From Nemertoderma westbladi (Eukaryota > Animalia > Xenacoelomorpha), in assembly GCA_032718475.1 (NCBI GenBank), contig JAUCBJ010006293.1, positions 1-34,035 on the forward strand: a DNA stretch of 34,035 nt, written 5' to 3'. This document shows, in pieces, positions 1 to 29,773 of this stretch (within the stretch, counting starts at the first letter, position 1; the number at the start of each line of letters is the position of its first letter). Both the position numbers and the translations under genes were made by a program. The notes beneath the pieces were generated by a model that made no database searches, was not told the DNA's origin, and was given only the letters and a program-made list of their open reading frames with translations.

Positions 1-3000
1 TTTGTACTTAAATGTGGGTGCATTGTTCCTCTCTTTGTACTACATTTGGGTGCATTGTTCCTCTCTTTGTACTTAAATGTGGGTGCATTGTTCCTCTCTT
101 TGTACTTACATGTGGGTACATTGTTCCTCTCTTTGTACTTAGATGTGGGTGTTGTTCCTCCCTTTGTACTTAAATGTGGGTGCATTGTTCCTCTCTTTGT
201 ACTTAGATGTGGGTGTTGTTCCTCCCTTTGTACTTAAATGTGGGTGCATTGTTCCTCTCTTTGTACTTAGATGTGGGTGTTGTTCCTCCCTTTGTACTTA
301 AATGTGGGTGCATTGTTCCTCTCTTTGTACTTAGATGTGGGTGTTGTTCCTCCCTTTGTACTTAAATGTGGGTGCATTGTTCCTCTCTTTGTACTACATT
401 TGGGTGCATTGTTCCTCTCTTTGTACTACATTTGGGTACATTGTTCCTCCCTTTGTACTTACATATGGGTGCATTGTTCCTCCCTTTGTACTTACATGTG
501 GGTGCATTGTTCCTCCCTTTGTACTTAAATGTGGGTGCATTGTTCCTCTCTTTGTACTTAGATGTGGGTGCATTGTTCCTCCCTTTGTACTTAAATGTGG
601 GTGCATTGTTCCTCTCTTTGTACTTAGATGTGGGTGTTGTTCCTCCCTTTGTACTTAAATGTGGGTGCATTGTTCCTCTCTTTGTACTTAGATGCGGGTG
701 TTGTTCATCCCTTTGTACTTAAATGTGGGTGCATTGTTCCTCTCTTTGTACTTACATTTGGGTGCATTGTTCCTCCCTTTGTACTTACATGTGGGTGCAT
801 TGTTCCTCTCTTTGTACTTACATGTGGGTACATTGTTCCTCCCTTTGTACTTACATGTGGGTGCATTGTTCCTCTCTTTGTACTACATTTGGGTGCATTG
901 TTCCTCTCTTTGTACTACATGTGGGTACATTGTTCCTCTCTTTGTACTTAAATGTGGGTGCATTGTTCCTCCCTTTGTACTTAAATGTGGGTGCATTGTT
1001 CCTCCCTTTGTACTTACATGTGGGTGCATTGTTCCTCTCTTTGTACTACATTTGGGTGCATTGTTCCTCTCTTTGTACTACATGTGGGTACATTGTTCCT
1101 CTCTTTGTACTTAAATGTGGGTGCATTGTTCCTCTCTTTGTACTTACATGTGGGTACATTGTTCCTCCCTTTGTACTTACATGTGGGTGCATTGTTCCTC
1201 TCTTTGTACTACATTTGGGTGCATTGTTCCTCTCTTTGTACTACATGTGGGTGCATTGTTCCTCTCTTTGTACTTAGATGTGGGTGTTGTTCCTCCCTTT
1301 GTACTTAAATGTGGGTGCATTGTTCCTCTCTTTGTACTTAGATGTGGGTGTTGTTCCTCCCTTTGTACTTAAATGTGGGTGCATTGTTCCTCTCTTTGTA
1401 CTACATTTGGGTGCATTGTTCCTCCCTTTGTACTTACATGTGGGTGCATTGTTCCTCTCTTTGTACTTAGATGTGGGTGCATTGTTCCTCCCTTTGTACT
1501 ACATTTGGGTGCATTGTTCCTCTCTTTGTACTACATGTGGGTGCATTGTTCCTCTCTTTGTACTTAGATGTGGGTGTTGTTCCTCCCTTTGTACTTAAAT
1601 GTGGGTGCATTGTTCCTCCCTTTGTACTTACATGTGGGTGCATTGTTCCTCTCTTTGTACTACATTTGGGTGCATTGTTCCTCTCTTTGTACTACATGTG
1701 GGTACATTGTTCCTCCCTTTGTACTTACATGTGGGTGCATTGTTCCTCTCTTTGTACTTAGATGTGGGTGCATTGTTCCTCCCTTTGTACTTACATGTGG
1801 GTGCATTGTTCCTCTCTTTGTACTTAGATGTGGGTGCATTGTTCCTCCCTTTGTACTACATTTGGGTGCATTGTTCCTCTCTTTGTACTACATTTGGGTG
1901 CATTGTTCCTCCCTTTGTACTTACATGTGGGTGCATTGTTCCTCTCTTTGTACTTAGATGTGGGTGCATTGTTCCTCCCTTTGTACTACATTTGGGTGCA
2001 TTGTTCCTCTCTTTGTACTACATGTGGGTACATTGTTCCTCTCTTTGTACTTAAATGTGGGTGCATTGTTCCTCCCTTTGTACTTAAATGTGGGTGCATT
2101 GTTCCTCCCTTTGTACTTACATGTGGGTGCATTGTTCCTCTCTTTGTACTACATTTGGGTGCATTGTTCCTCTCTTTGTACTACATGTGGGTACATTGTT
2201 CCTCTCTTTGTACTTAAATGTGGGTGCATTGTTCCTCTCTTTGTACTTACATGTGGGTACATTGTTCCTCCCTTTGTACTTACATGTGGGTGCATTGTTC
2301 CTCTCTTTGTACTACATTTGGGTGCATTGTTCCTCTCTTTGTACTACATGTGGGTGCATTGTTCCTCTCTTTGTACTTAGATGTGGGTGTTGTTCCTCCC
2401 TTTGTACTTAAATGTGGGTGCATTGTTCCTCTCTTTGTACTTAGATGTGGGTGTTGTTCCTCCCTTTGTACTTAAATGTGGGTGCATTGTTCCTCTCTTT
2501 GTACTTACATGTGGGTACATTGTTCCTCCCTTTGTACTTAAATGTGGGTGCATTGTTCCTCTCTTTGTACTACATTTGGGTGCATTGTTCCTCCCTTTGT
2601 ACTTACATGTGGGTGCATTGTTCCTCCCTTTGTACTTACATGTGGGTGCATTGTTCCTCTCTTTGTACTACATTTGGGTGCATTGTTCCTCTCTTTGTAC
2701 TACATTTGGGTGCATTGTTCCTCTCTTTGTACTTAGATGTGGGTGTTGTTCCTCCCTTTGTACTTAAATGTGGGTGCATTGTTCCTCTCTTTGTACTACA
2801 TTTGGGTGCATTGTTCCTCTCTTTGTACTACATTTGGGTGCATTGTTCCTCCCTTTGTACTACATGTGGGTGCATTGTTCCTCTCTTTGTACTACATTTG
2901 GGTGCATTGTTCCTCTCTTTGTACTACATTTGGGTGCATTGTTCCTCTCTTTGTACTTAGATGTGGGTGTTGTTCCTCCCTTTGTACTTACATGTGGGTG

Positions 3001-6000
3001 CATTGTTCCTCTCTTTGTACTTACATGTGGGTACATTGTTCCTCCCTTTGTACTTACATGTGGGTGCATTGTTCCTCTCTTTGTACTACATTTGGGTGCA
3101 TTGTTCCTCTCTTTGTACTACATGTGGGTGCATTGTTCCTCCCTTTGTACTTAAATGTGGGTGCATTGTTCCTCTCTTTGTACTTAGATGTGGGTGTTGC
3201 TCCTCCCTTTGTACTTAAATGTGGGTGCATTGTTCCTCTCTTTGTACTTAGATGTGGGTGTTGTTCCTCCCTTTGTACTTAAATGTGGGTGCATTGTTCC
3301 TCTCTTTGTACTTAGATGTGGGTGTTGTTCCTCCCTTTGTACTTAAATGTGGGTACATTGTTCCTCCCTTTGTACTTACATGTGGGTGCATTGTTCCTCC
3401 CTTTGTACTACATTTGGGTACATTGTTCCTCCCTTTGTACTTACATGTGGGTGCATTGTTCCTCCCTTTGTACTTACATATGGGTGCATTGTTCCTCCCT
3501 TTGTACTACATTTGGGTGCATTGTTCCTCCCTTTGTACTACATTTGGGTGCATTGTTCCTCCCTTTGTACTACATTTGGGTGCATTGTTCCTCCCTTTGT
3601 ACTACATTTGGGTGCATTGTTCCTCCCTTTGTACTACATGTGGGTGCATTGTTCCTCCCTTTGTACTACATTTGGGTACATTGTTCCTCCCTTTGTACTT
3701 ACATGTGGGTGCATTGTTCCTCCCTTTGTACTACATGTGGGTGCATTGTTCCTCCCTTTGTACTTACATGTGGGTGCATTGTTCCTCTCTTTGTACTACA
3801 TTTGGGTGCATTGTTCCTCTCTTTGTACTTAGATGTGGGTGTTGTTCCTCCCTTTGTACTTAAATGTGGGTGCATTGTTCCTCTCTTTGTACTTACATGT
3901 GGGTGCATTGTTCCTCTCTTTGTACTACATGTGGCTGCATTGTTCCTCCCTTTGTACTTACATGTGGGTGCATTGTTCCTCTCTTTGTACTACATTTGGG
4001 TGCATTGTTCCTCCCTTTGTACTTACATGTGGGTGCATTGTTCCTCTCTTTGTACTACATTTGGGTGCATTGTTCCTCTCTTTGTACTTAGATGTGGGTG
4101 TTGTTCCTCCCTTTGTACTTAAATGTGGGTGCATTGTTCCTCTCTTTGTACTTACATGTGGGTGCATTGTTCCTCTCTTTGTACTACATGTGGCTGCATT
4201 GTTCCTCCCTTTGTACTTACATGTGGGTGCATTGTTCCTCCCTTTGTACTACATTTGGGTACATTGTTCCTCCCTTTGTACTTACATGTGGGTGCATTGT
4301 TCCTCCCTTTGTACTTACATATGGGTGCATTGTTCCTCCCTTTGTACTACATTTGGGTGCATTGTTCCTCCCTTTGTACTTACATGTGGGTGCATTGTTC
4401 CTCTCTTTGTACTACATTTGGGTGCATTGTTCCTCTCTTTGTACTTAGATGTGGGTGTTGTTCCTCCCTTTGTACTTAAATGTGGGTGCATTGTTCCTCT
4501 CTTTGTACTTACATGTGGGTGCATTGTTCCTCTCTTTGTACTACATGTGGCTGCATTGTTCCTCCCTTTGTACTTACATGTGGGTGCATTGTTCCTCTCT
4601 TTGTACTACATTTGGGTGCATTGTTCCTCCCTTTGTACTTACATGTGGGTGCATTGTTCCTCTCTTTGTACTACATTTGGGTGCATTGTTCCTCTCTTTG
4701 TACTTAGATGTGGGTGTTGTTCCTCCCTTTGTACTTAAATGTGGGTGCATTGTTCCTCTCTTTGTACTTACATGTGGGTGCATTGTTCCTCTCTTTGTAC
4801 TACATGTGGCTGCATTGTTCCTCCCTTTGTACTTACATGTGGGTGCATTGTTCCTCTCTTTGCACTACATTTGGGTGCATTGTTCCTCTCTTTGTACTTA
4901 GATGTGGGTGTTGTTCCTCCCTTTGTACTTAAATGTGGGTGCATTGTTCCTCTCTTTGTACTTACATGTGGGTGCATTGTTCCTCTCTTTGTACTACATG
5001 TGGCTGCATTGTTCCTCCCTTTGTACTTACATGTGGGTGCATTGTTCCTCTCTTTGTACTACATTTGGGTACATTGTTCCTCCCTTTGTACTTACATGTG
5101 GGTGCATTGTTCCTCCCTTTGTACTTACATATGGGTGCATTGTTCCTCCCTTTGTACTACATTTGGGTGCATTGTTCCTCTCTTTGTACTACATTTGGGT
5201 GCATTGTTCCTCTCTTTGTACTACATTTGGGTGCATTGTTCCTCTCTTTGTACTTAGATGTGGGTGTTGTTCCTCCCTTTGTACTTAAATGTGGGTGCAT
5301 TGTTCCTCTCTTTGTACTACATTTGGGTGCATTGTTCCTCTCTTTGTACTTAGATGTGGGTGTTGTTCCTCCCTTTGTACTTAAATGTGGGTGCATTGTT
5401 CCTCTCTTTGTACTTACATTTGGGTACATTGTTCCTCCCTTTGTACTTACATGTGGGTGCATTGTTCCTCTCTTTGTACTACATTTGGGTGCATTGTTCC
5501 TCCCTTTGTACTTACATGTGGGTGCATTGTTCCTCTCTTTGTACTACATTTGGGTGCATTGTTCCTCTCTTTGTACTTACATTTGGGTACATTGTTCCTC
5601 CCTTTGTACTTACATGTGGGTGCATTGTTCCTCCCTTTGTACTACATTTGGGTGCATTGTTCCTCCCTTTGTACTTACATATGGGTGCATTGTTCCTCCC
5701 TTTGTACTACATTTGGGTGCATTGTTCCTCTCTTTGTACTACATTTGGGTGCATTGTTCCTCTCTTTGTACTTACATTTGGGTACATTGTTCCTCCCTTT
5801 GTACTTACATGTGGGTGCATTGTTCCTCTCTTTGTACTACATTTGGGTGCATTGTTCCTCTCTTTGTACTTACATTTGGGTACATTGTTCCTCCCTTTGT
5901 ACTTACATGTGGGTGCATTGTTCCTCCCTTTGTACTACATTTGGGTGCATTGTTCCTCCCTTTGTACTTACATATGGGTGCATTGTTCCTCCCTTTGTAC

Positions 6001-7228
6001 TTACATGTGGGTGCATTGTTCCTCCCTTTGTACTTACATGTGGGTACATTGTTCCTCCCTTTGTACTTAAATGTGGGTGCATTGTTCCTCTCTTTGTACT
6101 TAGATGTGGGTGTTGTTCCTCCCTTTGTACTTAAATGTGGGTGCATTGTTCCTCTCTTTGTACTTACATGTGGGTGCATTGTTCCTCTCTTTGTACTACA
6201 TGTGGCTGCATTGTTCCTCCCTTTGTACTTACATGTGGGTGCATTGTTCCTCTCTTTGTACTACATTTGGGTGCATTGTTCCTCCCTTTGTACTTACATA
6301 TGGGTGCATTGTTCCTCCCTTTGTACTTACATGTGGGTGCATTGTTCCTCCCTTTGTACTTAAATGTGGGTGCATTGTTCCTCTCTTTGTACTTAGATGT
6401 GGGTGCATTGTTCCTCCCTTTGTACTTAAATGTGGGTGCATTGTTCCTCTCTTTGTACTTAGATGTGGGTGTTGTTCCTCCCTTTGTACTTAAATGTGGG
6501 TGCATTGTTCCTCTCTTTGTACTTAGATGTGGGTGTTGTTCATCCCTTTGTACTTACATTTGGGTGCATTGTTCCTCCCTTTGTACTTAAATGTGGGTGC
6601 ATTGTTCCTCTCTTTGTACTACATTTGGGTGCATTGTTCCTCCCTTTGTACTACATTTGAGTGCATTGTTCCTCTCTTTGTACTTACATGTGGGTGCATT
6701 GTTCCTCCCTTTGTACTTACACTTACATGTTTCCTCCCTTCGTACTTACTTGCGGGTGCATTGTTCCTCCCTTTGTACTTACATGTGGTTGTTGCTCCTC
6801 CCTTTGTACTTACATGTGGGTACATTGTTCCTCTCTTTGTACTTAAATGTGGGTGTTGTTCCTCCCTTTGTACTTATATGTGGGTGCATTGTTCCTCCCT
6901 TTGTACTTACATGTGGGTGCATTGTTCCTCCCTTTGTACTTACATGTGGGTACATTGTTCCTCTCTTTGTACTTAAATGTGGGTGTTGTTCCTCCCTTTG
7001 TACTTATATGTGGGTGCATTGTTCCTCCCTTTGTACTTAAATGTGGGTGCATTGTTCCTCTCTTTGTACTTACATGTGGGTGCATTGTTCCTCCCTTTGT
7101 ACTTACATGTGGGTGCATTGTTCCTCCCTTTGTACTTACATGTGGGTGCATTGTTCCTCCCTTTGTACTTACATTTGGGTGACTTGTTCCTCCCTTTGTA
7201 CTTACATGCGGGTGCATTGTTCCTCCCT
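1..7228. repeat. 31-33 bp minisatellite array (roughly 220 units, truncated by the window start), intronic in the VGLUT-like gene and derived from its exon end plus 5' splice site
   Basis: Consensus on + is TTTGTACTTACATGTGGGTGCATTGTTCCTCYC; on - it reads GRGAGGAACAATGCACCCACAT|GTAAGTACAAA. Variants are 33 bp, 32 bp (ACTACAT) and 31 bp (GGGTGTTG). The last unit merges into the coding exon at 7206-7228. Confidence 0.98.
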
Positions 7229-7395
7229 CGTGCGTAGAGGCATTCCCATTAAGGGTAACTACAGAAACACCTAGATTACATCGGATCCCGAAACTAATAC
7301 AGAAACCAAGGCCGCACATCAGGGCGATGGCGTACCGGGTAGAGATACTACAGCATTGGGGGCACGTGCATGGCAGACGTCCGCGAAACCGATTC
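7206..7395 (-). CDS. VGLUT: Vesicular glutamate transporter (SLC17A6/7/8-like) exon encoding TM1 and the start of the first luminal loop
   Basis: Acceptor ttttcttccctag| and donor |GTAAGT. Translates [63 protein letters not shown], matching the VGLUT motif [34 protein letters not shown]. 190 nt, phase 2 in, phase 0 out. Confidence 0.93.
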
Positions 7396-7974
7396 CTAGG
7401 GAAGAAAAATGCAACAAAAATATTAATAATTATCCTTACAGTTAGGGTGGACCAAAAGTGATCGAAAGTCGAAAATCTATCACAAATCGTTTCGAAAATA
7501 ATCGATCGAATTTTTTTTATTTTGTGATGATTTTAGATGAATTTTTAACTTAAGCATATCACTTTTATTTAACAAACAAGATTTTAATGCAATTTATATT
7601 ACTCATTATTACTATTATTGTTATTATATTCACTTAAGACAAACAGTCGACGATTATATAAATTATATATAAATGGATAGAATGCATATCACACACTGGA
7701 TAAGGCACCAGATCGTCTCAATGATAATTTTATCAAATTTTGATCGCGTTGAATCGGACTTTCGACGCATTCAAAATTGATCCAACTTCAGGGGAAAATC
7801 GAGACAAATATCAGGTGATTAACTCAAAAATTAAACTGTAGCCTTATCTAATCAAATCACTTTAGTAATAAAAAAACATGCCGCTGTAACCTGCTCCTTT
7901 CTTTTAATTTATAATTAACTTTCGCCGAGGCGAGATATTAATTCATCGAGAAGAGATTTGCGTGCATCACAACG

Positions 7975-7996
7975 CCCCCCCCCCCCCCCCCCCCCC
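7975..7996. repeat. Poly-C tract (C22)
   Basis: Direct read. Similar G/C homopolymers occur at 18179-18200, ~19692, ~19772, 30171-30185 and 30237-30262. Confidence 0.9.
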
Positions 7997-8355
7997 ATCT
8001 CAAAAATTACCACAGGATCATGAATGAATACACTTATTTTAGCTTTTCACTCAATGTAATTTTACCACTCTTAGAACCTGCCAACTCGTGTAAAACTTAA
8101 TACACTCGGACAAAATAATTTAATTTCAGTCAATTATAATTAGTTACCGTGATACTACACGATACAGCTTAGCTGTAATCAGATATAGCAACTATCAGAT
8201 AACAACTACAGTTGATATAAAGACAACGTATTGAATCTTGAACTTCAGTACGAAATTACCGAGTCCTACCCCCTAGGACTGTTCAGTCATTTCCTAAACT
8301 ATAAAATAACGGAATAATTAATAAACAGTAGATCCACTGCTATAGTATCTCTTAC

Positions 8356-8463
8356 CTCAATGATGAAGAATCCGCTAATTCTGGGGCACCCCCTATGTGA
8401 CCGTTCTCCAGGGTCTCCTCGTGGTTCAGCAACGATTTCTCATCCAAATTTTTATGCCCCGCC
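8356..8463 (-). CDS. VGLUT: Upstream VGLUT-like exon (cytoplasmic N-terminus)
   Basis: Acceptor aatttttag| and donor GAG|GTAAGA. 108 nt, open: AGHKNLDEKSLLNHEETLENGHIGGAPELADSSSL, ending in phase 2 (AG|G = Arg), which joins in frame to the 7395 exon. GC-richer than its flanks. Confidence 0.72.
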
Positions 8464-9158
8464 CTAAAAATTATAATAATTAATTATATAATAATGTAAT
8501 AATTAATTGCAATTATTGCGGTCTGTCTTGTTCGAGATATAAATGACATACTGTCCTGGTCATATTGCGTATTGTTAAACACTAAACTGAGAATGATCGA
8601 ACATGCTCTTGCGAAATTTTACTTTTACTACATATGTGCTATTCTGAATATAAGTCAATTCAATCATTGATTGAATTCCAAAGCTAAGTCGGTGGTGACA
8701 CCTGACACACCACCGATATACTAATTATATATCACAGGGACTAACCAAATGTAAAAAAAAATACCCTGGAATTCCCGTTCGTGTTGCAGTACCTATAAGA
8801 AGAATCAGTTTTGCCCGTAGGAGTAGATTGTATTCTGTGCATATTTCCTCTAGAGCTTGAATTAGTATTAGCAGGACGTATGCAAAATAGATGGGCAGTG
8901 ACAGGGCTATGTTTGGTGATATGGCGTCCATCGAACTAGGGTCGCCCATACAACCCCCTTCCTATGTACTGTATAATACATCAATACATGGCAGCGAGCT
9001 CATCTATAAAACCGATAATATCATATGCCCGGGAATTATAATTAGAACCCTCGCAGCCTCGCCTTCCAGTGTAATTTTCATTCGTTCAAGTCCAAGTGCA
9101 CAGAGAATAAATTCAAAGCTGGAGTGCTAATAAACAATAAGTTAAATGTTAGGCCTAC

Positions 9159-9175
9159 CTCACAATAGAGTCCAT
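9159..9175 (-). CDS. Candidate VGLUT start-codon exon (MDSIVR)
   Basis: ATGGACTCTATTGTGAG|GTAGGC ends in phase 2, compatible with the 8463 acceptor. Very short, so it could be chance. Confidence 0.3.
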
Positions 9176-12100
9176 TTGATAATCGTGTTCATTTTACATA
9201 AAATTAATTGTACTACTAATCAATAGATAGATAACACCGTAATAACTACAGTTCACAGTTGCAGTACCCGTAACAGTACAAATTAGATATAAATTTCAAA
9301 TTTGACTACATCTTTGAGCCACTGTCAGACAACACTGCCGGTTGTGGTATCCTTATGCAAAGTTCAATACTCAAATATCAGTCTGCAGATGTTTGCTACT
9401 GCTCTAGTGTACTGTGACTGCGACATTACTGGTACTGTGTAGTGTAAGTTACTTTGGCAGCATACTGGGATCAGGCTCTCTGGGTGTCAGGTTATGTTAT
9501 AGACGTTATGAATTAATTGAATTTCCCTCCTAAAAATCCCCATGGCTTAATTCATTAAATCAAATTTAATAGACATTTTATTGCTACTATGTTATGTTAT
9601 TGTGATTTTATGTTATTATATTTATTATTTATTTTATATATCCTATATCGGTATGTTATATTATTAATGGATTGTGGATAATCATTTAATTAAATATTGC
9701 AGTTATTAAAATAAAAATCGTTATAGTAAGGTCTTTTTTATGTACAATAATGCACATGGAATACATGACGGATAGGAGAAAAGATACTATTCAATAATTT
9801 TATTCAATCCAATTTTAGTTTTTTGTGATACTTTAGCTTGTGTGCTTCACTCTTTCGTTTATTGTTTTGATTATAATAATTTGGTCACAACATGGTCTGC
9901 TGTCTGCTAAACATTTACTCCCAACCTGTGTATCTCTAGAAACTTTATGAATAACTGCGACAAAAGAGTAATAATAATTGGACTAACCCAGTTTCAGTTA
10001 ATGTCGAGTAAGAATACCTAGCTAGCCATCATCCCCAAGCCGAGCTATCCTCTCTCCCTAGAGGCTTTACGGGGTTAGCTTAATTGGAAATATTAATTTC
10101 CTGTTTATAATGTAATCTGTAAGGTTGGCACAGTAGTAGGCCTCATGGTTGTACTGTATAATGACGGAAAAGCCACGTTAGTTACTGTATAAAAATAACA
10201 TAAGAGGATTAGGAGGATATTTCTTCGTTGTAAATTAAGTTTGAATTTGAATGCAACTTTATACTGTATATTATAAAAAACTATAGATAGATTTTCGAAT
10301 TTTCATATGGTTTTCTTTTCATAATGCGTGGGAAAGTATGAATTATTGAATGTGGGACTCTTTTAAGGGTGTATTCAGACAGGCCTGTTCACCATCACCG
10401 CTCCAATATGCGGAGGGTTCTTCTCGGCATCCTTAAACGGTCGCCAAATCGGTACCAGTTTTTTGGAGGAGATAAGACCGCACGCATAAGTCGCCAGACT
10501 TTATGCTTATTCCAGCAATCCCGAAATCGCACTGAATTACTTGCGCGCACCACATAGTATGCTATTGACCCACGACAATTAGGTCAGCCATCATTGATTG
10601 ACAGCCACTGCGCACTGCGCGCGATCTGTCTTCTGGGTTCACCTCTACCGATAGTAGTTAAGGCGATAAGTCAACGCGCAAGTCAATTCCAAATATATAT
10701 ATTTTCGAAAATTACTGGCCTCGGAGATTTTATTGGCACTTGAAATCAACATAAACTTGAACTAATTAGGGTGGATTGAATATCTTCTATTGTTTTCCCC
10801 ACAGACTGAACACACGCCCACTCCACTCTTTCTACTGTATTTACTCAGGGTAATTGCGCTACAGTTATAAAGTTAATGCGGCTTCGTTCAGAGGGTCGTG
10901 AATCATTGATGATGTTGGGATGAGGGGTCAACTACAGCCATTGACGACCATCCATAATAGATGAGCGAAGGAATTGCTTGCGAAGCCGCTGTGGAGTGAA
11001 CGTCATACCAACATGATGGAGTACATGCATCTTAGAACTGACAGCAGAAGCATGGTTCCAAGGCCGGGGTTGGTCCGTGGGGGGTTTTATTGAGCAAAAA
11101 TATTATACCTGGTTTCGTGGGCATTCCAAATTAATCCTTTTGATAGGTTTAGTTTGAAGATTAACAGGAAGTACATTTTAATTTGTCTGTTTCTATTTTC
11201 TAACTAAAAATGATTATTAAATTTTTACAGCTATTGGAAAATATTATTCTACAGTTCATTATAAATTGCTTGCATAATTTATATTTTATGTTTAATCAGA
11301 GAAACGTCTAAGAAACCCTTCTTAAACCAAATATCCTACCCTGCTCTATCCACTACAAAGTATCCACTATTGACTAGCTATGGACAATAGGTAGGCTGGA
11401 CCTATATTGCACATTGACTACCACCTACTCTACTGCAGTATTTGTGGCAATAAGTTAGTGCTTTCAGTATTTGACTCGTTATTACCTTTCTGCCTTGCCT
11501 TACAATTGAATGGTTTCTGAGTGCGGCACGCTTGATCGATGATGCAAACCAAACTAATAAGCTTTGAAGGGTACTTTCAGGGTGAAAGTAATGAGAAACC
11601 CCATACCCTCCACATTATCACGGTATCTGTGTAGACACAGTGTTTGGCATACACTGAAAGGCGATTTTGAATATTGCGCGGAAAAGGTATGGCATATATT
11701 ATGAGATTGTATGTACAATACAATGGATTAAAATAACCGTAAATTAATAATAAATCAAATAATTAAGTATACATCTCATTAAGTATAGCCCATTTCACGA
11801 ACACGAACAAAAACGAGCGTTATGTACATATATTGAATTTTTCTTTTTTTTTTCGCATTTTTGCATTACGAAGCGGCGTATAATTGGACTTAATTTTAAG
11901 TGTGTATTGGTGGAGGGTATTATTGCATTAAACGTATGTAGCCAATGTATCAATGTGTGTGTCTCTATTGGTGAAGGGTTTGAATTACATGCGAGTTTCC
12001 ATCTCAAAAATTATGTCAATAAACAACTAACTAACTACCGTGCTCATAGATGTAGGCCTACCTCTGAACTAGGTTAGTAGAGTAAAGAGTAGGGCCTACG

Positions 12101-14521: not shown

Positions 14522-15577
14522 CTAAAAACACCCTCTAAAATACGAATGAACCAAATCCCCCAAAGCGCCGGTTGCGTTTCTAGTTATTTCTGGGTTGATC
14601 TGGTTGGGAAAGCGTCGTCTGCTGGGATCCGATCCGAAAACGAAATGGGGATGAATCGATTCGAAGTTTGGATATCCGATGTTAACTAGCGGGAATGGTC
14701 GGTTGGGTCCGACCATCGGGGCGTCCAGTTGGTAGACGGGGGATCCCGACGAAACATCTTCGCTGCGCTCTCGGGACGACTTGATTGCCATTTTATGGAG
14801 CTGTCGTTTCGCGAGTTTCTTTCCTTTGGCTCTCTCGTTCTGGAACCAGACCTGAACAATGCGCACCGGAAGTCCAGTCTCATCCGCGAGTCGCTCTTTC
14901 ACTTTCCGCGAGGGTTTCTGGGACACATCGAACGCCGTACGGAATATTCGTCGTTGGGTTGTCGTGAGAATGACCCGTTTGCTTCGGTTCACTAGATAAT
15001 GTTTCTTAAGTTTATTCGAAGAGCGAAAAGCCGTTGATTTATCGGATCCAGATGGGCTGGAATTCTCAAATAATTCATCGGAACAGCCGCTGTCATCTTC
15101 CGATAAACCGTCCACGTTAAAACTCATCTTATCAAGATCGGTTTTGCACATGAGTTGACCCTCGTTTATTATAAATTCATCTCCTTTCTCCAGATGCTTG
15201 CAGCACCAGGCGCAATTAAAGCAAGATAAATGAAACACGAGTTCCTTAACCCGCATCACAAGTTCCCGCGGTCCAACCAACTGGCAACAAACGTGGCATT
15301 TCGTGCCGAACAGACGCAAGTAGTCGTGTTTACAATAGTATTCGCGTTGTTTCACGTAGCACACGTTGTTCAATGGGATGCCGCACTCGCAGCACATCAA
15401 ACATCCCTCGTGCCAGAAACTCTCGCCTCCGCCCGACACACTTAGTAAATAACGGTCCAAAATATCCGTCTTACAACCGTGACATTGTGCGTGGGATGGG
15501 GGTTCCCGCTTCATGCTAATCTCAGATTGAATGGAAAGAGTTTCTCTTTCGTACTGTAAAGCATCGCAACGATTCAT
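14522..15577 (-). CDS. Lmx1: LIM-homeobox transcription factor, Lmx1 class, intronless CDS (351 aa from the first ATG)
   Basis: Two complete LIM domains (CHGC..WHEGCLMCCEC..CKHD; CHVC..FHLSCFNCAWC..CKTD). The homeodomain at 14810-14989 (RVILTTTQRRIFRTAFDVSQKPSRKVKERLADETGLPVRIVQVWFQNERAK) closely resembles Lmx1 [51 protein letters not shown]. C-terminal SYF as in Lmx1. The track start at 15616 is not an ATG; the first ATG is at 15577. Confidence 0.95.
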   Translation of the reverse strand: MNRCDALQYERETLSIQSEISMKREPPSHAQCHGCKTDILDRYLLSVSGGGESFWHEGCLMCCECGIPLNNVCYVKQREYYCKHDYLRLFGTKCHVCCQLVGPRELVMRVKELVFHLSCFNCAWCCKHLEKGDEFIINEGQLMCKTDLDKMSFNVDGLSEDDSGCSDELFENSSPSGSDKSTAFRSSNKLKKHYLVNRSKRVILTTTQRRIFRTAFDVSQKPSRKVKERLADETGLPVRIVQVWFQNERAKGKKLAKRQLHKMAIKSSRERSEDVSSGSPVYQLDAPMVGPNRPFPLVNIGYPNFESIHPHFVFGSDPSRRRFPNQINPEITRNATGALGDLVHSYFRGCF

Positions 15578-15665
15578 TACTTCCAACAAGAAGAAGAACA
15601 GAAGAATACAACACAAAGAAGAAGGTTAAAACATGAGAACAAGTAGCTTACTCAGAAACAGAAAC

Positions 15666-18540: not shown

Positions 18541-18809
18541 GGGTGAGTACAAAACAAAGACCCAAGACTTCTGCCCATTCTGTACAAAACAAAGATAAGG
18601 GGTAAAAGTCGCGTTAGGTCCCAAAGAGCGTTAGGTCCCAAAGAGCGTTAGGTCCCAAAGTGCGTTATGTCCCATTGTCATTTAAATGAGCAAGTTAGTT
18701 AAGGAGCAGGTTACAGAGGCGTGTTGAGGGAACCAAAACAATAAACGAGAGTTAACACATGTGTTTTGTACAGGTCTTGAGTCTTTGGGTCTTTGCTTTT
18801 TACTCACCC
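18541..18809. mobile_element. MITE with ~30 bp terminal inverted repeats and a degenerate 10 bp TSD (Mutator-like)
   Basis: Left end GGGTGAGTACAAAACAAAGACCCAAGACT; right end reverse-complemented GGGTGAGTAAAAAGCAAAGACCCAAAGACT. Inner IR CTGTACAAAACA/TGTTTTGTACAG. Flanks CTCTGTTCCA (18531-40) and CCCTGTTTCA (18810-19). Internal 17 bp tandem GCGTTAGGTCCCAAAGA x~3.7. Confidence 0.7.
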
Positions 18810-20328
18810 CCCTGTTTCAGAGTAACCATTACTCATTATAAGTAACGTATCGTTTTATTAAGCCTATTTATATTCCTTCAAGTAGTTCAAGTACAGTAAC
18901 AGTACCGGTAGGTATAGTTGATACTTACTTGTGAATTCCGATCTTAGTGATTTCAATTAATTCTTTAGGTCTATCGACCACACGAGTTCTCACATTATCC
19001 AAGACTCTCCTGGCCCCGTCCATATCTATAACCGATAGGTTGTGACGAGTTTCACATAAAAGTTTGTCGGTATTCTATACGGAATCCCAGGGGCTCTCTC
19101 CACAGAGGGATTCAACTGCAACCCCTGTTCTAGAATACGTAGACTGTTGTTTTATACTTTTCCTGATTTCAGGTTCGGGTTAGTTTTTTATTTATTTGTG
19201 AAATAAATTAGAAATCTGAAGAACGGAGAAGTAGTGTGTTAAAAAAGTTTAGTATCTGTCGATAATAAAATACATCGGTTAATGAATTATTATTCAAATA
19301 TCTCAAATAGACTTAAGATAAATTTATTTTACAACATATCACATTGCAACTTCATATTCAAATGAGTTGGTAAGTAATGTAAATTTTACAGCTCTCTCTC
19401 GAGATGAGTCGTAATAATAAATATAATAAATAAAATTAATAAAATAAAACTCAAACTCAAACTCAAATAAACTTTATGTTATAAATAAATTCATTAATTC
19501 TTTACATTTTAGTTGAAACATATTTGAATGTAATTTTCTCTAAATTTATATTATAGAATTTTAGAAAATACAGCAAAAATGTAATATTTTAAAATACTTT
19601 CATTTGCGCGCTTTTCATGAGCAAAAGTTGTATTAACAAACTATCGGTTGAGTGCATTGTAATGAGCTACAGTAGTTTATCTGTAAAGTCAGGGGGGGGG
19701 GGATACTTGTCTCAAATCCCATATCAGCGAATTAATACCTCGTATCCAAGTATTAATTAAAGGAAAGGACTCCCCCCCCCCCATATATGTCTAGTTCACA
19801 ATCAAGTACATAAATTTATTGATATTTGATGTTATCAAATCTCTAATATTTCATTTTACATAATGCGAAAATAAAAAGTTGACATTTTGTTCGCATTCCA
19901 ATGTATATTATTAGTTTTTCAATTTCATTTTCTTTTTATTCGTTTTCATTTCTTTTTTCATTTTTATTTATTTTGGTCACTTTTATTTGCGCACTTACAC
20001 TTGCGTGATACCACAAGTGGTATGTAATAATAAATTACGACAAACGAACGAACTTGGCGACTGAGTTTCTAATGAAAATAAAGCTATGAAGATTGGAACA
20101 CTGCGAAAAGTATGTTTATAGGTACAGTAAGTAGACATAAACTGTAATATTACGAGACGGTTGGATAATATGGTTATGATAAAATAATATGAAACTCGTG
20201 TTGTTAGAAAATTTTAATATTTCTAGTCTATTAATAATTACTGTAGTCTTAAAATTTATATATACAATTTCAATAGCAACCGTAAGTTTGCTTACCACCT
20301 ATAGCAAATCAATCGGAAAGATGCAGGA

Positions 20329-20401
20329 GCCTCCGTGGTGTTAGTGGTTAGCATACCTGAACGTTTATCGGGAGACGCGGGTTCGATCCCCGCTGGTGGC
20401 G
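20329..20401 (+). tRNA. tRNA-like sequence (pseudo-tRNA or tRNA-derived element; nominal anticodon GTT)
   Basis: Folds as a cloverleaf: acceptor GCCTCCG/TGGTGGC (one T-T mismatch), D arm GTGT-TAGTGGTTA-GCAT, anticodon stem CCTGA/TCGGG, T arm GCGGG-TTCGATC-CCCGC. A and B boxes are intact and TTCTTTTTT follows. The loop ACGTTTA lacks U33 and purine 37. Confidence 0.7.
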
Positions 20402-23400
20402 AATTCTTTTTTCCCGCTCCATTTGCTATAGAGTTGGATCATCCTTAGTCCTGTTTAATTACTTAAAATTTATATATATTAGGAATTTTTTGTGCATCAA
20501 TGTATTTTGCATGTAGTTTTACAAAAATGTATCAGCTTATCTTAAGATATTGGACCCTTAGTAACTGTTGTACACGTACAAGAGTAGGTACAACAACAAA
20601 AATGCTATTGGGCTACTTAATTTGATTATTATTAATTAACAATATTTATTGTTCGTAAGATACTCAAAACGACGGCAAAGCAATTTCTAATTTCAGGTTC
20701 AGTTTTTTCATGTTGTTCAGGTCCATTTTCATCTGGAGCTGTAATTTTGAATGTCTACATTAATTTGCTAGTTTGGAATCTTGAGTTCTAATGAGTTGTA
20801 CAACAACTGTCAATACATTAGTACGTTGAGTTAAGTAAAATTTTTGGAATAAAAAGTATTTTACTTTAAATCTTAATTTAATAAATTCTTTTAATTTTTT
20901 TCCATAGTAATGTTTGTTATTAAGTTCGACCGATAATGTTCCCTTCTAATAGTTAGTCCAATCGTGGTGAATGTGAACTATAGAATAAAATGATTTATAA
21001 TCTTTGAGAAATCTTTTCACATTAATGTAAGTAGCACACAAATAAAAATGTAACGCACGCCCAAATTCTGTAACGCACAAACGACAGACACTATATGCTA
21101 CGAACGAACAAAAGTGTAATAGGCCTACACAAACAAATAGAACTGTAACGCATAATCCATATATACAAGAAATCAATATACCAAGAATCCATATACCGCA
21201 GAAAGAAAGTTAATCTCTGGTTAATTCATTTATTTGTAACACAATGGTAGCACAAACTGTTTGCGCACTGTTGTGGATGTCGCGCCCATGCATCTATTAT
21301 TGGGAGGATGGAACGATTAAATATTAATAGTATAATAATTATCTTATTCACTACGGTGAGTTGCTTTAAATTTATACTAATTATAATTACCTAATAACGA
21401 ATTCTCCTGTATTTTCTTTTTATAACTCTCAGTGTAGCTCCTCAAAACGCCTTACACAGATTCACAAATTATGCGTAGATGTCGAAAGTTTAGGAGGGAG
21501 GTCAGTGTTCCCATTGGCTGGCGGTTTCCTGGCGACTGACTTCAATCCTGGAATGGCTGTTGTGTCGACCAAGGAATCCGGGATTGGATGGTTGCTGACG
21601 CACGAGGGTTGGTTGCCTTCCTGATACTGCTCCCGGTATTATCAAGATGTGTTAGCAGATTAAACTGACGTTCTGTGAAACTATATAGTTGTGTAAAGGG
21701 TGCATTACCTAATTGAATTGTAGGTTGTGTGTGTTAGGTTGGGACCACCGGTGGAAAGCAGCCTAAATGATAATAGAACAAGCATATCAAAACTACATTA
21801 GCGTTAAGAGAGACGGCCAAATGACGTTATGCCGGGTCAACTAAAACCCCCACCCCACTGCGATAGGAATGGCATTTTGTCTCATTGATCCCGAGAACTC
21901 TAGTAGGGGTCCTTTTGTAATTACGGGGTAAATTGAAAGTGCCTACTTTGTGTAGATCTGTGATGATATTATCTCGCCTTATTTTACTGGTACTGCTGCT
22001 CTCACTTAGTGTCTGTAACTGAGGAGGGTAATAATGTCTGATGACGAACATACGCGTCTTTCTACATGAGATATAGTGCCGTTCGTGTATGTTATGCGTT
22101 ATATAAAATGTCAATTTTTCCATCATACCTATAAATGCCATGTTATTCCAGGTAGCAGAGAGAGCATGTGATGAGGATGCCTTGATTGGCATCAACAGGA
22201 TGCTACGCAGGGTTCATGAAATTGGATACGATGCTCATTTATGAGATCAGGAATTCTACATCCTCGGCAACATCTTATTGTAAAACCAAGCATCACCATG
22301 CAGGCACGACTAGACAACCTTATTAAATGTGCATCCTACTGGTGACGGCCTATATCTGGTGGTGATTATAAAGAGTTGGGATTGAACATCTAAATCTACA
22401 CGGGGCGATTATCATTAATAATTTATATAAATCTAACAGAACTAAATAATACTAAATAATAATCTTAAATTAATACAATTATTATAAATATAAATTCATT
22501 GAGTGGTAACTATACTCCTTTTCCGTGCGTTATACCCTGAATTCGATGGTATTTATATCAAAGGCACTAAAAAAACTAAAGTATAACTGGTCGTAGTCAC
22601 CTGAAGAAGATAAGATTCATTTCATCTTAATCGGCCTTCGCAGAAAACCGTCTTGACTTATGCGTTACGACGTTACGTTATTAATATTTACACTCAGTTT
22701 ACACTCTAAAACATTTAAAAAATAAGGAGTGTGTCACAGGTGTATGATGGTAATTCGGTTAGCATTTCATGACAAACACTAAAAGGTGATTTTTTCAAAC
22801 TGGAAATTGCTTGAGTATATTTTGAGGAATACTGTCTGTTATCGACTGAGACAATTGAGTCGCTTATCCTAAGAGATTTTCCATCTAATTTGTATTACAA
22901 CACGATTACAATAGAAGATGTCTATCCTAGATAAATACCCCATTCTGAATTTAATGAAATTGATCGTTTTAACATTCATCCTTATTCAAGTATCAGTTTT
23001 CTTAACGTATACGTTGTATCTAGAAGACCAATCACTATGCATCACTTAAGTAACGAATAATAAATTATATCTAAATAATATTTGCACCCGTTTTCAATAT
23101 TGCTTAACTTTTTTTGGAAACTAACAAGTACAACGCATCTTAAATTATCTTACTCTAATCATTCTATAACTTTATCAGCCGTTAAATGCTTGGCAAGCAC
23201 AAATATATATCCTGGGCAACGTTCATTCACAACGAATAATGGAATGCGTAATAGTAACCCGCTATGTAGATCCCATGTAATTTTATGCCAAAATAAACGA
23301 CATGAAACTCGAAGCTTCCAAATCTACAAGTAACCGATTGGAACATAAGTGCCATCCTTATGAAATAATTCCAGTATTTCTATGTTAGATTCTTTTATTT

Positions 23401-23442
23401 CTACTTCTTTTATCTTTCGTGCCGTTCCTTGTGGTATTTATA

Positions 23443-23570
23443 ATGTCTGACTCAAGAGAATATTCCCGTGATCCTCTAACTAAGGAGCCCGATGAAGCTG
23501 AAACTTCCGAAGGGGCTGCTGTCATCAGAGAACCAAAGTACTACGATCCAAATAGTTACCCAGTGGGAAG
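23443..23570 (+). CDS. PLSCR: Phospholipid scramblase, probable first coding exon
   Basis: ATG at 23443; MSDSREYSRDPLTKEPDEAETSEGAAVIREPKYYDPNSYPVG, then AG|GTTCGT (phase 2), joining in frame to the exon at 24053. Confidence 0.68.
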
Positions 23571-24052
23571 GTTCGTTTATCCTATTGTCTTATTATTGCT
23601 ATCGTGTACATATATGTAATATTGGATATTATGGATGGAAATGGACAGGACATACTATACGCACTAACTTTGCTGCAACAGTCTGTTAGCAACCTGCTGA
23701 GGGCAGGTTCAACGGTGACGTAGTTCCGCATTTTGTAAACTCTAAAACAAAAAACCTATAAAATATTATTTATTTAAGTCGCATTATCAGCTCAACTCCT
23801 ATTTATTGAGTAGGACTACCGTTCGCATATGACCATTGTTTATTGTCTCCATTTCATATATTTACAATTTTAATTTTTTATATTTTTCACGCTTTTTTAA
23901 ATATAAAATTATAAATAAGGTTCTTATAGATTCCCTAGATAAGGTTCTTATATATGGGGCATTCCTCGCATAATGTAAAGTTACTAATATTTTTTATAAT
24001 TGAAAAAATGCACAAATCCAATGAATCCTTGATGAGTTTTTTACTATTTCAG

Positions 24053-24231
24053 ATGGATGGCCAAGCCCACGATACTGGAAGGAAATTGCATGGATGGGTT
24101 GGAGTATTTGGTGCCGTTGGATTCCATTAAGGTAGAACAAACCGTGGAATCTCGAGCATTATGTTGTGTTTCTGAAAACACCTACAGAATTCGCAATAGT
24201 GCTGGAGAACTTATATACTGGGCGACAGAAG
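24053..24231 (+). CDS. PLSCR: Phospholipid scramblase exon 2 (not in the ORF track)
   Basis: Acceptor ttactatttcag| and donor GAAG|GTTAGT. WMAKPTILEGNCMDGLEYLVPLDSIKVEQTVESRALCCVSENTYRIRNSAGELIYWATE matches PLSCR WM..P....NCP.GLEYL..ID.I...Q..E.......N.Y.I.N..GQ.VYFA.E. Confidence 0.92.
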
Positions 24232-24374
24232 GTTAGTTACTAATGGGGAACTGGACAGAAACCGATGATGTCGCTGCCATAAAAAAAAGGAATGTTATTG
24301 AAGGTAAGGCGAATGGCCTATTATAGTAATAGTAGGTCATGTAACAAGGTAGTTCCGAACATGGTGCAACGAGG

Positions 24375-27300
24375 ATAGTGGTACCCATAGCACAATAGTG
24401 GAGTCCATGTAACGATATTGGTGCCCATAGCACGATAAGTGGAGTCCATGTAACGATAGTGGTGCCCTGCCCATAGCACAATAGTGGAGCTCATGTAACG
24501 ATAGTGGTGCCCATAGCACAATAGTGGAGCTCATGTAACGATAGTGGTGCCCTGCCAATAGCACAATAGTGGAGCTCATGTAACGATAGTGGTGCCCATA
24601 GCACAATAGTGTAGCTCATGTAACGATAGTGGTGCTCATAGCACAATAGTGTAGCTCATGTAACGATAGTGGTACCCATAGCACAATGAGTGGAGTCCAT
24701 GTAACGATAGTGGTGCCCTGCCCATAGCACAATAGTGGAGCTCATTTAATGTTAGTGGTGCTGGTGCCCATAGCACAATAGTGGAGCCCATGTAACGATA
24801 GTGGGGCCCTGCACATAGCACAATATTGAAGCCCATGTAACGATAGTGGTGCCCATAGCACAATAGTAGAGCTTATCTAACGTTTAGTGGTGCCCAAGGC
24901 ACAATAGTGGAGCCCATGTAACGATAGTGGTGCCCTACCCAGCCCATAGCACAATAGTGGAGCTCATGTAACGTTAGTGGTTCCCATAGCACAATAGTGG
25001 AGCCCATGTAACGATAGTGGTACTCATTGCACAATAGTGGAGCTCATGTAACGTTAGTGATGCCCATTGCACAATAGTGGAGCTCATGTAACGTTAGTGG
25101 TGCTGGTGCCCGTGGTACAATAGTAGTGCTCATTTAACGATAGTGGTGCCCATTGCACAATAGTGGAGCTCATGTAACGTTAGTGGTGCTGGTGCCCATG
25201 GTACAATAGTAGTGCTCATTTAACGATAGTGGTGCCCATTGCACAATAGTGGAGCTCATGTAACGTTAGTGGTGCCCATTGCACAATAGTGGAGCTCATG
25301 TAACGTTAGTGGTGCCCATTGCATAATAGTGGAGCTCATGTAACGTTAGTGGTGCTGGTGCCCATGGTACAATAGTAGAGCTCATTTAACGATAGTGGTG
25401 CCCATTGCACAATATTGGAGCTCATGTAATGCTAGTGGTGCAGGTGCCCGTGGTACAATAGTAGTGATCATTTAACGATAGTGGTGCCCATTGCACAATA
25501 GTGGAGCTCATGTAACGTTAGTTGTACCCATAGCACAATAGTGGAGCCCATGTAACGATAGTGGTGCCCTGCCCATAGCACAATAGTGGATCATGTAACG
25601 TTAGTGGTGCCCATAGCACAATAGTAGAGCTCATCTAACGTTTAGTTGTGCCCAAGGCACAATAGTGGAGCCCATGTAATGATAGTGGTGCCCTGCCCAG
25701 CCCATAACACAATAGTGGAGCTCATGTAACGTTAGTGGTGCCCATAGCACAATAGTGGAGCCCATGTAACGATAGTGGTACTCATTGCACAATAGTGGAG
25801 CTCATGTAACGTTAGTGGTGCCCATTGCACAATAGTGGAGCTCATGTAACGTTAGTGGTGCCCATTGCATAATAGTGGAGCTCATGTAACGTTAGTGGTG
25901 CTGGTGCCCATGGTACAATAGTAGAGCTCATTTAACGATAGTGGTGCCCATAGCACAATAGTGGAGCTCATGTAACGTTAGTGGTGTCCATTGCACAATA
26001 GTGGAGCTCGTGTAACGTTAGTGGTGCTCATTGCACAATAGTGGAGCTCATGTAACGATAGTGGTGCCCATAGCACAATAGTGGAGCTCATGTATTGCTA
26101 GTGGTGCAGGTGCCCGTGGTACAATAGTAGTGCTCATTTAACGATAGTGGTGCCCATAGCACAATAGTGGAGCTCATGTAACGTTAGTGGTGTCCATTGC
26201 ACAATAGTGGAGCTCGTGTAACGTTAGTGGTGCTCATTGCACAATAGTGGAGCTCATGTAACGATAGTGGTGCCCATAGCACAATAGTAGAGCTCATGTA
26301 ACGTTAGTGGTGCTGGTGCCCATGGTACAATAGTAGTGCTCATGTAACGATAGTGGTGCCCATTGCACAATAGTGGAGTTCATGTAACATTAGTGGTGCT
26401 GGTGCCCGTGGTACAATAGTAGTGTTCATTTAACGATATTGGTGCCCGTTGTACAATAGTAGTGCTCATTTAACGATAGTGGTGCCCATTGCACAATACT
26501 GGAGCTCATGTAACGTTAGTGGTGCTGGTGCCCGTGGTACAATAGTAGTGTTCATTTAACGATATTGGTGCCCATTGCACAATAGTGGAGCTCATGTAAC
26601 GTTAGTGGTGCCCATGGTACAATAGTAGTGCTCATTTAACGATAGTAGTGCTCATTGCACAATAGTGGAGCTCATGTAACGGTAGTGGTGCCCACTGCAC
26701 AATAGTGGAGCTCATGTAACGTTAGTGGTGCTGGTGCCCATGGTACAATAGTAGAGCTCATTTAACGATAGTGGTGCCCATTGCACAATAGTGGAGCTCA
26801 TGTAACGTTAGTGGTGCAGGTGCCCGTGGTACAATAGTAGTGCTCATTTAACGATAGTGGTGCCCATTGCACAATAGTGGAGCTCATGTAACGTTAGTGG
26901 TGCCCATTGCATAATAGTGGAGCTAATGTAACGTTAGTGGTGCTGGTGCCCATGGTACAATAGTAGTGCTCATTTAACGATAGTGATGCCCATTGCACAA
27001 TAGTGGAGCTCATGTAACGTTAGTGGTGCCCATGGCACAATAGTGGAGCTCATGTAACGTTAGTGGTGCTGGTGCCCGTGGTATAATAGTAGTGCTCATT
27101 TAACGGTAGTGGTGCCCATTGCACAATAGTGGAGCTCATGTAACGTTAGTAGTGCCCATTTCACAATAGTGGAGCTCATGTAACGTTAGTGGTGCCCATT
27201 GCACAATAGTGGAGCTCATGTAACGTTACTGGTGCCCATTGCACAATAGTGGAACTCATGTAACGTTAGTGGTGCCCATGGTACAAAAGCAGAGTTCATT

Positions 27301-29437
27301 TAACGTTAGTGGTGCTGGTGCCCGTGATACAATAGTAGTGTTCATTTAATGATATTGGTGCCCATTGCACAATAGTGGAGCTCATGTAACGTTAGTGGTG
27401 CCCATTGCACAATAGTGGAGCTCATGTAACGTTAGTGGTGCTGGTGCCCATGGTACAATAGTAGTGCTCATGTAACGATAGTGGTGCCCATTGCACAATA
27501 GTGGAGTTCATGTAACGTTAGTGGTGCTGTTGCCCGTGGTACAATAGTAGTGTTCATTTAACGATATTGGTGCCCGTTGTATAATAGTAGTGCTCATTTA
27601 ACGATAGTGGTGCCCATTGCACAATACTGGAGCTCATTTAACGTTAGTGGTGCTGGTGCCCGTGGTACAATATTAGTGTTCATTTAACGATATTGGTGCC
27701 CATTGCACAATAGTGGAGCTCATGTAACGTTAGTGGTGCCCATGGTACAATAGTAGTGCTCATTTAACGATAGTAGTGCTCATTGCACAATAGTGGAGCT
27801 CATGTAACGGTAGTGGTGCCCACTGCACAATAGTGGAGCTCATGTAACGTTAGTGGTGCTGGTGCCCATGGTACAATAGTAGAGCTCATTTAACGATAGT
27901 GGTGCCCATTGCACAATAGTGGAGCTCATGTAACGTTAGTGGTGCAGGTGCCCGTGGTACAATAGTAGTGCTCATTTAACGATAGTGGTGCCCATTGCAC
28001 AATAGTGGAGCTCATGTAACGTTAGTGGTGCCCATTGCACAATAGTGGAGCTCATGTAACGTTAGTGGTGCTGGTGCCCATGGTACAATAGTAGTGCTCA
28101 TTTAACGATAGTGGTGCCCATTGCACAATAGTGGAGCTCGTGTAACGTTAGTGGTGCCCATGGCACAATAGTGGAGCTCATGTAACGTTAGTGGTGCTGG
28201 TGCCCGTGGTATAATAGTAGTGCTCATTTAACGGTAGTGGTGCCCATTGCACAATAGTGGAGCTCATATAACGTTAGTGGTGCCCATTGCACAATAGTGG
28301 AGCTCATGTAACGTTAGTGGTGCCCATTGCACAATAGTGGACCTCATGTAACGTTAGTGGTGCCCATGGTACAATAGTAGAGCTCATTTAACGATAGTGG
28401 TGCCCATTGCACAATAGTGGAGCTCATATAACGTTAGTGGTGCAGGTGCCCGCGGTACAATAGTAGTGCTCATTTAACGATAGTGGTGCCCATTGCACAA
28501 TAGTGGAGCTCATGTAACGTTAGTGGTGCTGGTGCCCGTGGTACAATAGTAGTGCTTATTTAACGATAGTGGTGCCCATTGCACAATAGTGGAGCTCATG
28601 TAACGTTAGTGGTGCTGGTGCCCATGGTACAATAGTAGTGCTCATTTAACGATAGTGGTGCCCATTGCACAATAGTGGAGTTCATGTAACGTTAGTGGTG
28701 CTGGTGCCCATGGTACAATAGTAGTGCTCAGTTAACTATAGTGGTGCCCAGGGCGCAATAGTAGAGCTCATGTAACGTTAGTGGTGCTGGTGCCCATGGT
28801 ACAATAGTAGTGCTCATTTAACGATAGTGGTGCCCATTGCACAATAGTGGAGTTCATGTAACGTTAGTGGTGCTGGTGCCCATGGTACAATAGTAGTGCT
28901 CAGTTAACTATAGTGGTGCCCAGGGCGCAATAGTAGAGCTCATGTAACGTTACTGGTGCCCATTGCACAATAGTGGAACTCATGTAACGTTAGTGGTGCC
29001 CATGGTACAAAAGCAGAGTTCATTTAACGTTAGTGGTGCTGGTGCCCGAGGTACAATAGTAGTGTTCATTTAACGATATAGGTGCCCATTGCACAATAGT
29101 GGAGCTCATGTAACGTTAGTGGTGCCCATTGCACAATAGTGGAGCTCATGTAACGTTAGTGGTGCTGGTGCCCGTGGTACAATAGTAGTGTTCATTTAAC
29201 GATATTGGTGCCCATTGCACAATAGTGTAGCTCATGTAACGTTAGTGGTGCCCTGCCCATTGCACAATAGTGGAGCCCATGTAACGTTAGTGGTGCTGGT
29301 GCCCATGGTACAATAGTAGTGCTCAGTTAACTATAGTGGTGCCCATGGCGCAATAGTAGAGCTCATGTAACGTTACTGGTGCCCATTGCACAATAGTGGA
29401 GGCTGGTGCCCATAGCACAAAAGTGGAGCTCATGTAA
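24375..29437. repeat. ~5 kb minisatellite, 40 bp core unit with 45/46 bp variants, filling scramblase intron 2
   Basis: Consensus ATAGTGGTGCCCATWGCACA-ATAGTGGAGCTCATGTAACG, with insertion variants CCCTG and GGTGCT. Confidence 0.98.
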
Positions 29438-29773
29438 TGTTGTTTTTATTTTAGAAACTAATCTATGTGTACGTTGTTGTCTTTATTTTAGAAACTAATC
29501 TATGTGTACGTTGTTGTCTTTATTTTAGAAACTAATCTATGTGTACGTTGTTGTCTTTATTTTAGAAACTAATCTATGTGTACGCTGTTGTCTTTATTTT
29601 AGAAACTAATCTATGTGTACGTTGTTGTCTTTATTTTAGAAACTAATCTATGTGTACGTTGTTGTCTTTATTTTAGAAACTAATCTATGTGTACGTTGTT
29701 GTCTTTATTTTAGAAACTAATCTATGTGTACGTTGTTGTCTTTATTTTAGAAACTAATCTATGTGTACGTTGT
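29438..29773 (+). repeat. 37 bp tandem array (9 acceptors) made of the scramblase 3' splice site plus exon start
   Basis: Unit TTGTCTTTATTTTAG|AAACTAATCTATGTGTACGTTG. The AGs end at 29454, 29491, 29528, 29565, 29602, 29639, 29676, 29713 and 29750. Confidence 0.97.

Follow-up and report, generated by a model that had tools for sequence, protein, structure and literature searches.

The stretch of DNA analysed here, hereafter the window, is 34,035 nt long and corresponds to positions 1-34,035 (forward strand) of contig JAUCBJ010006293.1 in the Nemertoderma westbladi assembly GCA_032718475.1. It carries exons of a vesicular glutamate transporter gene (VGLUT, SLC17A6/7/8-like) on the minus strand and of a scramblase gene on the plus strand, together with three large tandem arrays identified by TRF (33 bp x 223, 40 bp x ~120 and 37 bp x 9.1), beside which the window holds six small repeats and two homopolymer runs. 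The edges of the two junction-spanning arrays, ~3 and 6 units each, were compared with four public runs, X1 to X4. X4 is not recorded as RNA, but since its contigs are spliced and lack the introns, we treat it as a transcriptome. The window also contains an intronless LIM-homeobox gene, LMX1-like (14528-15625, minus strand), which lies upstream of VGLUT on the same strand and is 38-44% identical to six of its seven matches, a tRNA-Asn(GTT) gene (20329-20401, plus strand), and an intronless filamin-like gene with two CH domains and a filamin repeat (30852-32500), on the plus strand like the scramblase gene. The last repeat of the filamin-like gene appears to shift frame twice near 32395-32455, which might reflect assembly indels or decay. 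The next scramblase exon of X4 was not found in the window, so the filamin-like gene is likely to lie inside a scramblase intron.

Results

A donor-side array at a VGLUT exon

The features of the VGLUT gene that bear on the first array are as follows.

1-7227 (TRF 1-7228), minus strand: 33-bp donor minisatellite, TRF period 33, 223 copies; contigs of the unit in X1, X2 and X3
7074-7205, minus strand: proximal decoy donors of units 2-5, intact and in frame; exon ends would be 7173, 7140, 7107 and 7074
7206-7395, minus strand: VGLUT exon of 190 nt with the authentic phase-0 donor at its end; VGLUT2 match; covered by an X4 contig
8356-8463, minus strand: upstream VGLUT exon of 108 nt, spliced to 7395 (X4 joint 7394-8355, ends CT..AC)

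Exon 7395-7206 encodes the initial part of a vesicular glutamate transporter (match to VGLUT2 chains at E 1e-14) and is separated from the upstream exon by a GT-AG intron of 960 nt (7396-8355). This intron harbours a high-copy dispersed repeat (7760-7960; summed depth up to ~156,000 versus 16-24 in the flank), with a smaller high-copy repeat nearby at 8075-8147. On the far side of the intron, the X4 VGLUT contig stops exactly at an acceptor-like site at 8463 (minus strand), and the 108-nt exon has no Met; a branch at this point could reflect alternative first exons or trans-splicing.

Unit 1 of the array (7227-7195, minus strand) consists of the final 22 nt of exon 7395-7206 plus 11 intron nt and contains the real donor, in agreement with a first-pass annotation of this DNA that had described the unit as the last ~22 nt of the exon plus intron sequence. 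The 7.2 kb and 223 units counted here are lower bounds, for the array reaches the first base of the window and continues past it, with its far end outside. Units are 33 nt (n = 123), 32 nt (n = 70), 31 nt (n = 29) or 29 nt (n = 1) long and fall into 32 distinct types, whose order along the array is structured, with recurring multi-unit blocks. The six-base donor is intact in 76 of the 223 units, a point absent from the first-pass annotation, and broken in the other 147 (66%). The +1 G is lost in 77 units (43 to T, 32 to C and 2 to A, i.e., all three possible substitutions), and an A at +3/+4 in 70. Scored against the donor consensus, the damaged units match at 4-5 of 11 positions versus nine for the real site. 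The share of intact donors, from the exon to the far end, runs 5/5, 7/12, 18/43, 22/60, 14/60 and 10/43. The first five donors have all stayed intact and keep the frame, the 33-nt unit has no stop codon, and each of units 2-5 would add 11 residues after TM1; the intact donors that come after these five do not preserve the frame. A search of the donor array for an acceptor-like AG returned none.

The position of this donor was compared with VGLUT-like loci from a metagenome scan, which yielded 13 loci, 12 of which were scored (the other, L013, was missed by the peptide pattern). A donor-like motif stands at exactly the window's offset in 4 of the 12, and nine bases earlier with unchanged phase in three similar ones; one locus, L005, reads through the exon boundary with no intron, and in the remaining four no motif was found near the offset by the pattern used. 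These loci indicate that the VGLUT donor position is conserved and common to other animals, and the first-pass description of a conserved boundary holds for the VGLUT donor. In the 13 loci, TRF reported no repeat that spans the donor. We also considered that the intron had been gained by tandem duplication and rejected it, since the donor position is shared with other animals, the donor array contains no acceptor-like AG, and X4 has no additional joint.

An acceptor-side array and a third array in the scramblase gene

The corresponding features of the scramblase gene are listed below.

23443-23570, plus strand: probable first coding exon, inferred from the open frame
24053-24231, plus strand: exon with donor at 24231, Pfam Scramblase 1-60; a loose X4 end equals window 24200-24229 and is joined to 29751
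24374-29437 (TRF 24374-29401), no strand assigned: 40/46-bp minisatellite, ~118-120 units, 5 kb, adjoining the 37-bp array
29438-29773, plus strand: 37-bp acceptor minisatellite of 9 units (TRF), with exact 37-bp periodicity over 9.08 units; 67-nt cyclic contig in X1, X2 and X3
29751-29943, plus strand: exon of 193 nt, Pfam Scramblase 62-123 (E 8.6e-13); X4 contig 29749-29944 shows no differences

The exons at 24053-24231 and 29751-29943 thus match successive parts of the Scramblase profile. The 37-bp unit comprises 17 intron and 20 exon nt, or 14 and 23, as 3 nt are common to both ends, which bears out the ~15 plus ~22 nt proposed earlier. An AG acceptor is present in each of the nine units, from 29454 to 29750, the ninth (29750) being the real one. 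Use of any of AG1 to AG8 would lead to a stop after 12 codons (8/8); acceptor 9 alone keeps the frame. The copied exon start gives each unit a branch-point-like CTAAT, the A of which sits 31 nt upstream of the AG that follows. Acceptors 2-9 are consequently near-identical in context, with almost no differences in this motif, the pyrimidine tract, the AG and the first 23 exon bases.

The 40/46-bp array, which falls within the stretch covered by the first-pass annotation and went unmentioned there, has a unit made of two half units of ~20 bp each. Donor- and acceptor-like motifs were sought on both of its strands and none was found; having no splice motif and being unlike six nearby splice sites, it was rejected as a junction copy. 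It extends as far as the pyrimidine tract in unit 1 of the 37-bp array, so that two unrelated arrays abut with no spacer. The 40/46-bp array makes up ~92% of the scramblase intron and the 37-bp junction array ~6%; the idea that junction amplification inflates introns therefore suits VGLUT and fails for the scramblase gene. Just 3' of the used donor, the interval 24232-24302 (plus strand) contains a branch-point-like motif, an AG 27 nt on and 45 in-frame nt, and at 24302 another strong donor-like site follows; the 45-nt exon that this site might define was rejected, being absent from the X4 contig.

The arrays in public runs

Three of the runs, X1, X2 and X3, represent two samples and two studies; X2 and X3 come from one sample, and X1 may be the source of the assembly. 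Each contains a 67-nt contig (37 + 30), which is the cycle of a 37-bp tandem unit in a 31-mer graph, and each contains the 33-bp units at summed depths ~100 to 2600 times the flank, including variants with 1-nt and 2-nt deletions like those in the window. Relative to a simulated window donor array, depth was 3.4-4.8x in X1, 1.5-1.7x in X2 and 0.2-0.3x in X3, contig depth being no measure of copy number; estimating copy number in this way was rejected, as X2 and X3, from one sample, disagree several-fold. That both arrays are assembly artefacts, which the first-pass annotation had named as grounds for refuting it, might be argued from the facts that the public evidence consists of short-read contigs with no record spanning either array, that X1 is possibly the assembly's own source and that summed depths differ between runs. 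Because both units occur in contigs of three runs from two samples, and given the structured order of unit types in the donor array, we regard it as scarcely credible; the existence of both arrays is supported.

Splice sites used

In X4, a 2137-nt contig jumps the 960-nt VGLUT intron, covers 7206-7394 and leaves the window at 7206, i.e., at the first donor, running 1839 nt further off the window at a depth of 304. Depth is 0 over 7030-7188, and no contig lies on donor units 2-6, in a data set of contigs from which rare isoforms are dropped. On the scramblase side, a 1168-nt contig runs across 29749-29944, and ahead of this part stands the end of exon 24053-24231; this identifies the ninth and last AG as the one used. 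None of the decoy acceptors compared has a contig in X4, where rare forms are dropped and nonsense-mediated decay could hide decoys, and no extra splice joint was seen in the run. Both boundaries are real splice sites, since spliced contigs end or join exactly there, and the first-pass observation that both arrays straddle exon-intron boundaries and leave one intact exon was correct. The exon-proximal site is the only one seen in the spliced contigs of both genes, in one run that misses minor isoforms, and the protein is accordingly taken to be unchanged. Use of the last acceptor may point to exon definition, or to decay that hides the others.

Discussion

The account that we consider probable is that these are two minisatellites spanning real junctions, likely born by chance as short duplications and likely tolerated because splicing picks the site beside the intact exon. 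The seed would have been a 33- or 37-bp duplication across the junction by slippage or microhomology (3 nt are shared by the ends of the acceptor array), and unequal exchange or slippage may then have copied blocks of units, in keeping with the recurring multi-unit blocks of the donor array. By geometry, all copies of a duplicated junction piece that lie past the exon-proximal splice site are intronic, so growth into the intron needs no process of its own. The first-pass annotation had invoked a process or a selective filter; a permissive filter would account for survival, and expansion into the intron is a geometric consequence. Unused donor copies would decay, a few mutant unit types spreading by block duplication, and stray use of decoy acceptors would be removed by nonsense-mediated decay, leaving the arrays near-neutral. 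Junction-specific machinery would be unneeded, although a mild mutational bias toward exon edges would be compatible. In favour of this account, X4 ends at donor 1 and joins 24231 to acceptor 9, while the repeat units compared have no depth at all in it; the loss of donors, from all intact beside the exon to fewer than one in four at the far end, is as expected of unused drifting copies; and only one acceptor in nine keeps the frame. The region also makes arrays regardless of junctions, as the 5-kb non-junction array and the six small repeats illustrate, and two comparable systems point the same way: among identical donors, human F7 minigenes select just the most upstream one (PMC1557585), and lancelet mirages are reported not to disturb splicing (PMC3087553, PMC3902484).

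Several observations fit this account less well, and it has to be weighed against readings in which junctions or selection play a larger part. With arrays collapsed to one unit and placed uniformly, and ranges reflecting which arrays and junctions are counted, 0.03-0.14 junction-straddling arrays are expected and two are observed (P for two or more, 0.0003-0.008), in a window that was singled out for this very oddity in a very large scan. For the three large arrays alone, two of which sit on junctions, the expectation is 0.03-0.07 (P 0.0003-0.002); with all nine arrays, P is up to 0.008. A uniform null makes two in three an improbable result, and a filter on survival cannot by itself lift the rate above the intronic background. 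One might thus suppose that exon edges are mutational hot spots that seed tandem duplications in this genome, perhaps because co-transcriptional splicing, or the composition step at exon edges, promotes breaks or slippage, and that junction arrays are enriched genome-wide; the authors of the lancelet work suggest that mirages may be general in that group (PMC3087553, available text). This reading is compatible with the tolerance part of our account. However, the excess of two arrayed junctions in nine comes from one window, chosen for its oddity; tandem self-similarity or old duplications above background were found at none of the other seven junctions examined; 7 of the 9 arrays are not on junctions; and the related VGLUT loci, as described above, have no repeat across the donor. 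We therefore think hot spots unlikely. Our literature search, which covered titles and the beginnings of abstracts and few subscription papers, retrieved no genome-wide test for an excess of junction arrays in an invertebrate. The available text of PMC10078293 and PMC12783039 has no bearing on units that span junctions.

A bolder version holds that exon edges seed minisatellites far above chance here and that, in large donor arrays, selection favours units with dead donors, as 66% of units now carry one of the three +1 G substitutions or the +3 deletion, and the intact donors next to the exon are in-frame ones alone. Frequent unit variants do lean toward the donor (5/9 in -3..+6, P 0.07), as do recurrent ones (3/13 at GT, P 0.04, a comparison chosen after the fact). 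Nevertheless, these are two of nine binomial tests, the other seven giving P 0.10-0.69; the +2 T is the same in every unit; and the decoys closest to the exon, from which the strongest competition would be expected, have kept their donors. Block duplication of a small number of mutant unit types explains the variant counts, and linkage explains why +1 and +3 lesions never occur in one unit. Selection against decoy donors was thus not accepted, and we hold the combined claim to be improbable, more so than hot spots by themselves. The arrays could conversely be functional banks, in which VGLUT donors 2-5 would lengthen the loop after TM1 by 11, 22, 33 or 44 residues and decoy acceptors would tune scramblase level via decay of mis-spliced RNA. 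A unit free of stops, five intact in-frame donors and near-identical acceptors 2-9 with their branch-point-like motif would suit such a role, and the available part of PMC1557585 states that human 6-16 and CBS make use of the next two pseudo-sites. Against it, the VGLUT contig has ample depth and yet units 2-6 and the decoy acceptors compared have no X4 contig; a unit length that is a multiple of 3 arises by chance one time in three; and edge units that retain the founder sequence are ordinary array behaviour in the lancelet account (PMC3087553, available text). We find this reading very hard to favour, and the banks of decoy or alternative splice sites that had been suggested are not supported: RNA-like contigs, in which rare forms are dropped, show the exon-proximal site alone, 66% of the donor copies are broken, and every decoy acceptor would lead to a stop.

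Junction-spanning minisatellites tolerated by splicing, our preferred explanation, belong to a class that is already known, the mirage or F7 type, defined as head-to-tail arrays with a unit of 10-160 bp (here 33 bp x 223 and 37 bp x 9). As in that class, the terminal unit lies on a real junction, the splice signal is reiterated with many but not all copies intact, and exon-proximal splicing predominates (in one run). Copy number in that class also varies between alleles or individuals; here, summed depths vary from run to run, and do so within one sample as well, so that they give no copy number. The possible novelty raised by the first-pass annotation thus gives way to precedent in lancelet "mirages" and in human F7/CBS/6-16-type VNTRs. 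In the available text of PMC3087553 and PMC3902484, lancelet mirages (Adh3, the globins BflGb6 and BflGb9, troponin C and PGBD5) duplicate intron-exon boundaries, both 5' and 3', with units of 10-72 bp in Adh3; many but not all copies keep the AG or GT, regular splicing is unaffected, and the origin is called unclear. The arrays described here resemble them in the tandem duplication of junctions on donor and acceptor sides, the partial retention of signals and the use of the normal splice site. They differ in that the donor array has at least 223 units, as opposed to 2-7 in the globin and PGBD5 cases, and in occurring in a different animal, one without a close protein relative in the database (witness the identities of the LMX1-like neighbour). 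In human F7, as far as the available part of PMC1557585 describes it, the first 37-bp unit of the intron 7 VNTR spans the exon boundary and minigenes confirm the most upstream donor as the one used; the same part cites 6-16, CBS, LMNB2 and PDGF cases. The VGLUT array is alike in that its first unit spans the exon end, the donor is repeated downstream and the most upstream donor is used (here in X4), but F7-type arrays have 5-25 copies with identical pseudo-sites, as against at least 223 copies, 66% of them broken, and the acceptor-side array has no counterpart among the F7-type cases in that part of PMC1557585. Finally, human segmental duplications contain internal tandem repeats that lie at exon-intron boundaries, to which the available text of PMC2812944 ascribes 27 curated intron modifications. 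These repeats share with our arrays ~30-bp units at exon-intron boundaries that expand by slippage or unequal crossover; unlike them, they are short (~4 units) and often create new introns or alternative transcripts, none of which were seen here.

The arrays in N. westbladi are therefore two more cases of a known oddity, with a donor array that is unusually long and in which the occurrence of all three +1 G substitutions is likewise out of the ordinary, though without overall significance. Were selection for dead donors to prove true, splicing load would steer repeat turnover unit by unit, and a genome-wide excess, if real, would point to a mutational link between splice sites and the birth of repeats. 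The acceptor array is a natural experiment, with acceptors 2-9 near-identical and the last one seen in use, the mirror image of the F7 donor model, and as such offers a direct test of exon definition versus scanning plus decay.
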